Source of the DNA: a virus
Lineage: Duplodnaviria > Heunggongvirae > Uroviricota > Caudoviricetes
Length of the DNA: 4,747 bases
Virus record (IMG/VR): IMGVR_UViG_2671180556_000011
Direction: 5' to 3' (one strand)
Below are positions 3,001 to 4,747 of this stretch, piece after piece. Each line of letters opens with the position of its first letter. The first letter of the stretch is position 1. The position numbers are program-made.

Positions 3001-4747
3001 GCCGGAAGCCCCGGTCAGTAACCGAACCCTGATGAGTCTGCTGGCGTCCGGCGAAGACCTGGCATCACAGGGCTGGCGCTATTATCACAAACCGGCGAGC
3101 GGAGACAATGTTAACAAAAACATTGCTGAAGCGGTGGTCAGTGATGCGGGGGCTACGGGAGGTAAGGCCCTGCAACTGAATAAACCGGAAAACCACATCT
3201 GGTTTCTGGAGCATGATGCAGCCGGACAGGGAGTGGAGTTACTGAAGAAGGGGGGACGTGTGAGCGTACGGTTTAAGTTGCCGGGTTCACTGGTGCCGAA
3301 TCGGTTTGCCCTGGGCATTTACTGGCAGTTGTCGTCCCTGCCGGAGGGAGTGACGCTGGCAGAGGAAGGCAACGACATGCTGATGTCCTTCTTCCTGCAG
3401 ACGGATGCGACGAACCTGAACGCGATGTACCACAAGAAGCCGAATGCGAAGCTGGATACGTTCGGGGTCTTTGATAACGGATGGCACACACTGGCTTTTG
3501 AGTTTGCCGGAAACAACAGCATTCAGGTGACGCCGGTACTGGATGAGAAACGGGGGACGCCGTTCACACTGGTGAAATCTCCGGCATCAGGGGCGGCGGA
3601 CAAACTGCAACTGACAGGCATATCAAAGGCGGCGACATATACGCTGCTGATTGACAGTGTGAAGGTGGAAGTGAACAACGCGGATGCCGCGGCATGATAA
3701 AAAAAGCCGCCAGCGGCAGGAACGGAAGCTGGCGGAGGTAATCCCAATGGAGAATCTAACGAAAGGATGCTTTCGACATCAATCATTTCTAAATGAAAAC
3801 AGTTCTCATTGTCAACCATAACGGTAAGAAACTATGACATTTATTCATCAGGTGATGCTGTACTTCTGTACGGCGGTCTGTGTGCTGTATCTTCTTTCGG
3901 GTGGGTACAGGGCAGTGCGCGATTTCTGGCGCAGGCAGATTGATAAAAGGGCCGCAGAGAAAAACAGCGCCAGTCAGTCAGCCGGAGCAAAAACAGAAGC
4001 CCCACTCATTCCGGAACAACCTTCTTAATAACCCCTTTCAACGAGAAAATCCTATGTCAGAAATAAAATCGCTGGTCACTGCTGAGGCAGTGAAGGAAGT
4101 CCTGCGCTCTGAAGAAGTCCGGAGCGCACTGAAACAGCAACTTCGGCAGAACCTTGAGGCGCGTCTTGATGCAGAAGTGGATGCCATTCTGGATGAATTG
4201 CTTGGTGCACAGCCGGAACCATCCCCGGAACTGCTTCCGGAACCACAGGCGGAAGATGTCACCACGGAAAATGGTGATATTCAGCCGGAGCCACCGGTGA
4301 CGGATATGACAGACACACAGCCAGAATCGGGCACAATGCTGTAACGGTGAGTCAGGGTCATCAGTAAAGAGCTGGTGGCCCTTTTGTTGTTGTGAGCTTC
4401 CGAGTACGGGAGACGGGGTATGTACCAGATGGAAAAAATCACAACAGGTGTGTCATACACCACGTCAGCGGTGGGGACGGGATACTGGTTACTGCAGCTG
4501 CTGGACAAAGTCTCTCCGTCCCAGTGGGTGGCAATAGGTGTGCTGGGGAGTCTGCTGTTTGGCCTGCTGACGTATCTGACTAACCTGTATTTCAAAATCA
4601 GAGAGGACCGGCGTAAGGCGGCGCGGGGAGAGTAAAGTGATGAATAAAAAATACGAACTGGTTGTTAAAGGGATAAATAATTACCCGGATAAGATTACTG
4701 TTACTGTGGCACTGGAAATTGGTGGGTATCCGTCACTGTTGTTGCCA

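Follow-up and report, generated by a model that had tools for sequence, protein, structure and literature searches.

The DUF1378–DUF826 gene pair upstream of the S21-type holin in Escherichia coli prophages is linked to a phage esterase and not to the holin

In Shiga toxin (Stx) phages the interval between the esterase gene and the holin gene S carries two small genes—Orf25 and L0106 of phage 933W, H0119 and H0120 of VT2-Sakai—in the order esterase–DUF1378–DUF826–S. The sole paper to name both families just records that they lie between nanS-p and S (PMC10462455), and we found no functional study of DUF1378 or DUF826 in the literature. Here, we examine the same pair in a 4,747-nucleotide (nt) stretch of viral DNA (IMG/VR record IMGVR_UViG_2671180556_000011; hereafter ‘the window’), a late-region cargo segment from a lambdoid Escherichia coli prophage, of the same kind that bears the Shiga toxin genes. 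Its two open reading frames (ORFs), ORF1 (DUF1378) and ORF2 (DUF826), show no material difference from the 933W pair, the window carrying another allele at ~82% DNA identity. Both are already known, as ordinary members of two catalogued families without assigned function (‘DUF1378 family protein’ and ‘DUF826 domain-containing protein’ in RefSeq); what is new is that the pair’s association with phage SASA esterases is conserved across two prophage backbones unrelated to each other.

In most Stx phages the pair belongs to the late operon, with the toxin/esterase cargo on one side and the lysis genes on the other, and roughly one complete E. coli genome in five carries it: the version seen in the window occupies 2,730 places in at least 1,053 of 5,426. 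The best DNA matches to positions 3700–4420 came from 306 phage records, mostly Stx-converting phages at ~82% identity, with a few non-Stx Escherichia phages matching at 91–98%. The DUF826 family is small, its members coming only from Escherichia, Shigella, Citrobacter and Salmonella; among 1.84 billion representative proteins, a profile search returned only 53 relatives, and peptide patterns for DUF826 and DUF1378, run against GTDB species-representative genomes, gave 0, a result that tells only of a narrow host range.

The initial annotation of the window had placed two ORFs, separated by a gap of 25 nt, between the esterase and the holin genes—coordinates borne out here (Table 1)—and took this position to suggest a lysis-timing regulator, an exclusion function or an anti-defence, DNA-mimic-like moron. 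Our preferred reading, to which we give a probability of roughly 0.4, is a different one: that the pair would be late-expressed accessory partners of an esterase cassette, made up of a membrane anchor and an acidic soluble protein at the inner membrane face.

Linkage to the esterase and to the holin

The two genes show linkage with one another and with the esterase, and not with the holin. In loci gathered by similarity to DUF826, and hence in a biased sample, the pair is immediately preceded by a NanS-p-type SASA esterase in 97 of the 98 informative E. coli/Citrobacter loci. When the fetched DUF826-bearing loci are sorted by arrangement, leaving out those cut off at one end, 82 have the order esterase–DUF1378–DUF826–holin, 8 Mu-like loci have the first three genes without a holin, 4 from Salmonella have a short DUF826 alone after Rz, and 1 (VT2-Sakai, the single exception among the 98) has an esterase interrupted by IS629. 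Across 58 distinct combinations, the Spearman correlation of pairwise distances is 0.70 between ORF1 and ORF2 and 0.42–0.50 between the pair and the esterase domains; for the pair and the holin the values are −0.01 and 0.27, though the holin is physically nearer, a test that is weakened by the low diversity of the holin (mean distance 0.07).

The Mu-like loci present the trio in its second backbone. Here, baseplate and tail-fibre genes and the Gin invertase are followed by esterase, DUF1378, DUF826, com/mom and then host DNA, with no holin or lysis genes found within 5 kb of the pair; GenBank labels the same stretch an ‘inserted Bacteriophage Mu-like phage’, and this version is found, at ≥80% query coverage, in 196 complete genomes. 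The DUF826 subfamilies concerned (P0282 and P0227) are more distant ones, ~40% identical, and amino-acid identity across this divergence is 58% for the esterase, 52% for DUF1378 and 40% for DUF826. In some variants the DUF1378 and DUF826 genes overlap, an arrangement that suggests coupled translation. The Mu-like esterase is a SASA/DUF6645 protein of 679–693 amino acids (aa) with another N-terminal domain: ~110 aa (positions 2584–2950 of locus L103), which gave no Pfam or PHROG match, replace DUF1737. Its gene directly follows the tail-fibre and invertase genes, raising the question of whether this is a virion-associated version of the enzyme.

Conservation of the pair alongside S21-type cassettes, proposed as a check in the initial annotation, does not hold. 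The S21-type holin occurs at 16,813 places in 5,163 of the 5,426 genomes, making it ~6 times commoner than the pair, with K-12 EssD as an example of a holin without it. In one pair-less lineage, the esterase is followed by the same holin protein, both hairpins upstream of the holin being kept and no pair lying between; this widespread junction matches 4,605 places, spread over 2,062 genomes (1,908 genomes at ≥80% coverage). The pair-less form (loci L096, L097, L115 and L116) is thus commoner than the pair-bearing one. Its esterase is very uniform, at 617–618 aa with a divergent C-terminal domain, and in place of the pair there is ~80 nt of unrelated sequence, homology to the window restarting at ~4351. 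We looked at this junction for a remnant of the pair; as the stretch is unrelated sequence, the pair has been replaced there and not cleanly deleted. Because the holin is so much the commoner element, because the same holin occurs without the pair and because the Mu-like trio has no holin, the adjacency to the holin looks incidental, and position says little about what the pair does.

These observations bear most directly on the proposal that the pair regulates the timing of pinholin-mediated lysis, with DUF826 binding the basic cytoplasmic C-terminus of the holin and DUF1378 holding it at the membrane, in an antiholin-like manner comparable to T4 RI/RIII. The pair does end just 76 nt upstream of the holin start, in the same late operon; the holin tail is basic and DUF826 acidic; and the Salmonella DUF826 is again beside a lysis cassette, after Rz. 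A separate antiholin would also make sense of the dual start of the holin, MYQM (4420–4431; MNQM in two loci), as its three-residue extension is uncharged, with no Lys or Arg (the K-12 EssD dual start reads MKSM), and this allele may fall outside the charge-based antiholin logic that is usual for dual-start holins. However, the identical MYQM holin and both of its upstream hairpins occur without the pair, on which ground we also rejected a compensating role of the pair for the uncharged extension; the Mu-like loci have the pair and no holin; divergence of the pair does not track that of the holin; and in lambdoid phages the sequence on either side of a lysis cassette serves generally as a site for cargo. 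Consistent with the first impression that neither ORF resembles a known lysis protein, searches of Pfam and PHROGs returned no significant lysis family for either, the best match being an Rz-like spanin phrog for ORF1 (E 0.06). The step from holin adjacency to lysis timing finds no support in this comparison, and we regard such a role as quite unlikely.

It is also possible, if unlikely, that the pair is an autonomous membrane-directed accessory, in which DUF1378 would act on a host inner-membrane protein or keep DNA from entering (superinfection exclusion) and DUF826 would modulate it or serve as its antidote. Many exclusion factors and regulators of membrane proteins are small inner-membrane proteins with a single pass, and the pair shows the polymorphism of a moron, being present in some and absent from other related phages at the same position (2,730 against 4,605 places). 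Breakpoints of similarity cluster at 3698–3700, often exactly at the esterase stop, indicating that the pair can be exchanged independently of the esterase allele, and the terminator-like hairpin before the holin would permit expression in a lysogen without lysis. Set against this, no sigma-70-like or other promoter-like site was found on the + strand near the pair (3700–3834), PADLOC gave no match for it, a late Q-dependent position is ill-suited to exclusion by a resident prophage, and the esterase neighbour is constant in E. coli/Citrobacter loci; the exclusion function first suggested has gained no support, its fit with these last two features being poor. The description of the pair as moron-like accessory cargo fits its presence or absence from one esterase–holin interval to another. 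The downstream hairpin, examined as the pair’s own terminator, was rejected as such: it is common to pair-less loci and belongs to the upstream region of the holin.

Our own reading, of the pair as partners of the esterase cassette, has several points weighing against it in addition to the sampling bias and low holin diversity given above. The Salmonella DUF826 (loci L107–L110, 5001–5186), a protein of 61 aa with nearly no acidic tail, is encoded after Rz and before a protein of 192 aa whose family is unknown, with neither DUF1378 nor esterase beside it. The pair has been exchanged among esterase alleles that share 47–100% identity, and the very common 617–618-aa esterase lineage indicates that the enzyme works without the pair. 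Finally, gene adjacency can reflect shared history instead of shared function.

The two genes and their products

Patterns of sequence variation indicate that ORF1 and ORF2 are real genes under purifying selection. Both frames, whose conservation in homologues had been put forward as a check, are kept in 55 distinct variants: variable sites are distributed over the three codon positions as 17/11/26 in ORF1 and 8/6/22 in the helical part of ORF2, an excess at the third position, and coding indels are of 12 and 18 nt only, those in the esterase–ORF1 spacer not being multiples of three. The ratio of non-synonymous to synonymous substitution (dN/dS), measured against phage TL-2011c, stays below 1 throughout (ORF1, 0.39; ORF2 helix, 0.07; ORF2 tail, 0.27); diverged homologues have a strong Shine–Dalgarno sequence at both equivalent ATGs (for example taaggaggatatacATG); and each ORF finds its family (see below). 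A 45-aa ORF at 3684–3821, overlapping the esterase stop (933W Orf24 / H0118 / F366_gp39), was rejected as a third gene, as its indels are non-triplet and 58 of 136 sites vary; it is probably non-coding.

It has to be asked whether ORF2 is really longer (125–154 aa), or whether ORF1 and ORF2 are fused by a +1 frameshift into one membrane-anchored protein. The ORF2 frame is open for 62–66 codons upstream of the ATG in 54 of the 55 variants, many database entries start at an upstream TTG (or GTG), and a few proteins bear both domains (P0032, P0034 and P0069). Variable sites within the overlap nevertheless obey the frame of ORF1 (13/25/18), in variant L024 a stop codon closes the frame 29 codons before the ATG, Met1 is invariant with a strong Shine–Dalgarno sequence at that ATG in diverged homologues, and both the Pfam and PHROG models begin at the same Met; the fused proteins, for their part, are single-sequence clusters with scrambled linkers, and no slippery motif was identified. 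We rejected the longer and fused products on these grounds as very improbable, reading such DUF826 forms as over-extension or sequencing errors and a programmed frameshift as unlikely. The annotation error is widespread: public records over-extend DUF826 across DUF1378 in another frame (3856–4053), giving 125–141 aa in PGAP, 148 aa for 933W L0106 and 154 aa in a metagenome, and PHROG 8301 (139 positions) appears to have been built from long or fused DUF826 forms.

ORF1 matches PF07125 over the entire model (residues 1–59 to model positions 1–59 of 59; 114.6 bits against a cut-off of 25, E 2.3e-33) as well as phrog_494 (E 1.1e-35), and is 100% identical to an NCBI ‘DUF1378 family protein’ entry (P0106); homologues are 58–64 aa long. 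Its description as a single-pass membrane protein of 64 aa agrees with hydropathy (best 19-residue Kyte–Doolittle window 1.93, residues 3–21), with charge (isoelectric point, pI, 9.2) and with AlphaFold2, which predicts one helix over residues 3–50 and a tail with a predicted local distance difference test score (pLDDT) of <50. The layout is that of an N-terminal transmembrane helix (~3–25), a basic amphipathic helix (residues 26–44, charge +4) and a short Pro/Glu-rich tail, and DUF1378 has no lipobox. By the positive-inside rule, the N-terminus is predicted to be outside and the C-terminal part in the cytoplasm, which would put the basic amphipathic helix at the inner membrane face.

ORF2 matches PF05696 (residues 1–57 to model positions 1–59 of 75; 100.2 bits against a cut-off of 25, E 7.1e-29) and phrog_311 (E 2.7e-37), and is 99% identical to other database entries. 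With 22 D/E against 7 K/R it has a pI of 4.05 and a net charge of about −15; no signal peptide, export signal or lipobox was found. AlphaFold2 predicts helices at residues 10–17 and 20–49 (pLDDT 86–93 over residues 21–50), the confidence values bearing out the helical N-terminal half and strongly acidic, disordered tail of the initial annotation. The helical domain, whose C-terminal half (residues 35–50) carries a charge of −5, is the only part kept out to Citrobacter and Salmonella relatives. The tail has 0 K/R, 11 D/E and 9 Pro, closes on a hydrophobic tip, TML, and varies in both length and sequence, yielding DUF826 proteins of 81–101 aa; a Met/Leu-rich tip (TML, MML, MMM, TMM or AMM) recurs in most forms that lie beside esterase and DUF1378, the Citrobacter form having TL. 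The QPEP repeat once described for this tail is a loose scatter of QPEP (at 53 and 77), LPEP (at 61) and QPES (at 89), with no DNA tandem repeat found, and amounts to compositional bias and no true repeat.

Profile searches and prediction of structure and disorder, both suggested at the outset, thus lead to DUF1378/DUF826 and to a helix with a disordered tail. A sequence search of the PDB gave no relative at E < 0.3, and Foldseek found no significant match in BFVD for the ORF2 model, one long helix on its own being an unsearchable fold. This bears on the suggestion that DUF826 is an acidic DNA or protein mimic in the manner of Ocr/ArdA, blocking restriction or another DNA-targeting defence, for which its small size, low pI and net charge would speak. 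Known DNA mimics are rigid folded surfaces. In DUF826, by contrast, the acidic tail is predicted to be disordered, and it is variable and nearly absent from the Salmonella relatives, the helix being the conserved part, and half of the acidic residues lie in the tail, at pLDDT <50; no Pfam match to Ocr/ArdA was obtained at E ≤ 0.1, nor any relative in the PDB and BFVD searches; the position in a late operon would come too late to protect entering DNA; and a mimic leaves the obligatory membrane partner unexplained. The idea had drawn on net charge only, and we hold it to be highly improbable.

Hairpins and other features of the window

The hairpin that follows the esterase stop (Table 1) often marks the left edge of the mosaic segment bearing the pair and coincides with a frequent recombination breakpoint. 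A run of A5–8 with a hairpin built from different, compensating stems is seen in lambdoid, Mu-like (L103, ~4650–4690; L100, ~4640–4672) and Citrobacter (L111, ~4652–4698) loci, and is absent from the pair-less L096 and from L099. There is no T run on the + strand; the − strand reads hairpin plus T7, like an intrinsic terminator, a function that would imply leftward transcription across the pair, and the element may instead be an mRNA 3′-end or processing hairpin. The terminator-like hairpin downstream of ORF2 covaries across variants and is kept in pair-less loci; it would shield the lysis genes from any transcription that Q has not modified. The short hairpin after it, likewise conserved with and without the pair, might act in the choice of holin start, by analogy with lambda S.

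Table 1. Features of the 4,747-nt window, in order of position
Feature	Coordinates	Strand	Details
TerB-family gene	252–683		Overlaps DUF3927 gene by 4 nt
DUF3927 membrane-like gene	680–844		54 aa; 4-nt overlap with TerB-family gene
Small RNA STnc100	910–1114		Full-length Rfam match; 137.6 bits, gathering score 47
IraM-like ORF	1140–1475	−	111 aa; named anti-adaptor protein IraM in near-identical genomes
NanS-p-type esterase	1721–3697	+	658 aa; DUF1737 + SASA + DUF6645 (PF08410, PF03629, PF20350)
A7 run and GC-rich hairpin	3699–3735		GCCGCCAGC...GCTGGCGG; just past esterase stop
ORF1, DUF1378	3834–4028	+	64 aa; ATG start; stop included; PF07125, phrog_494
ORF2, DUF826	4054–4344	+	96 aa; ATG start; stop included; PF05696, phrog_311
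ORF2 helical DUF826 domain	4054–4203	+	Residues 1–50; 37 invariant columns in 14 E. coli sequences
ORF2 acidic Pro/Glu/Thr-rich tail	4204–4344	+	Residues 51–96 and stop; pLDDT <50
Terminator-like hairpin	4354–4382	+	12-pair stem and T run; followed by TTTGTTGTTG
6-bp hairpin	4397–4412	+	CTTCCG-AGTA-CGGGAG; directly before holin ribosome-binding site
S21-type class II (pin)holin	4420–4635	+	PF04971, E 1e-32
DUF1327/YdfR-like gene	After holin		Start only

Further upstream, the TerB-family and DUF3927 genes form another small two-gene cargo unit, preceding the small RNA STnc100. A terminator-like hairpin at 1084–1105 closes the STnc100 match, which is probably a short PR′-proximal transcript of the prophage. 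The IraM-like ORF, which has no Pfam match, looks like a separately acquired cargo gene because it lies on the opposite strand and in an AT-rich island (1050–1800, GC 32–40%).

Proposed role and comparison with known systems

On the reading that we prefer, esterase, DUF1378 and DUF826 make up a three-gene cassette that passes between prophages of E. coli, Shigella and Citrobacter as accessory cargo. Its place in lambdoid phages is the hot spot for cargo that separates Q from the lysis genes; in Mu-like prophages a diverged cassette is located between gin and com/mom. Transcription would probably be late, through read-through from PR′ along with the esterase: in Stx phages, nanS-p rises by 1–2.4 log on mitomycin C (PMC10462455) and no + strand terminator was found between esterase and pair, which together argue, from position, for late expression of the pair as well. 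DUF1378 would then sit in the inner membrane, N-terminus out, presenting its basic amphipathic helix on the cytoplasmic face, and DUF826—a soluble acidic helix with a flexible tail—would dock on that helix, the two stretches being complementary in charge (ORF1 26–44, +4; ORF2 35–50, −5). We envisage that this complex acts on or with the esterase, which by inspection has no signal peptide, before lysis releases it, whether by tethering, masking or handling, and that it does not time the pinholin. A long acidic DUF826 tail is found only where esterase and DUF1378 adjoin, the stand-alone Salmonella forms being without it, and this hints that the tail serves a function of the cassette.

A bolder version, which we think unlikely, has the trio as a self-contained cargo-handling module controlling the activity, localisation or release of a signal-less glycan esterase. 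If true, this would be a colicin-operon-like logic not described for phage-borne enzymes released by lysis, and the module would influence NanS-p, and possibly other cytoplasmic cargo, delivered to the gut by Stx-phage lysogens; the practical consequence is modest unless the pair does control the release of the esterase or of other cargo. The linkage itself recasts the pair, once ‘something to do with lysis’, as partners of a sialate O-acetylesterase cassette, and shifts the functional focus away from the holin.

Among known systems, Ocr/ArdA share with ORF2 small size and strong acidity, and differ from it in the lack of a family match, in the disorder and variability of its acidic part, in its late gene and in its membrane partner. 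The spanins Rz/Rz1, in which an outer-membrane lipoprotein partners a membrane-anchored coiled-coil protein of the periplasm, are a poor counterpart, since ORF2 has no signal peptide or lipobox and the ORF1 tail is, by charge, cytoplasmic; related phages carry a genuine Rz/Rz1 downstream. T4 RI/RIII resemble the pair in format only, as a small membrane-tethered and a small soluble helical protein encoded with late genes; there is no sequence relationship, and the pair has no conserved linkage to a holin. T4 RI acts through its periplasmic domain, unlike DUF1378, of which nearly everything past the anchor is predicted to lie in the cytoplasm. The colicin operons, which encode a cargo protein lacking a signal, a small immunity protein and a small membrane release protein, differ from the trio in that there is no homology, the two small genes stand in the other order, DUF1378 has no lipobox and, unlike with colicins, we know of no toxicity of the esterase. 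They nonetheless offer an analogy in gene logic: a large signal-less enzyme exported by lysis, its gene followed by those of two small proteins, one acidic and one of the membrane, and in both cases induced by DNA damage.

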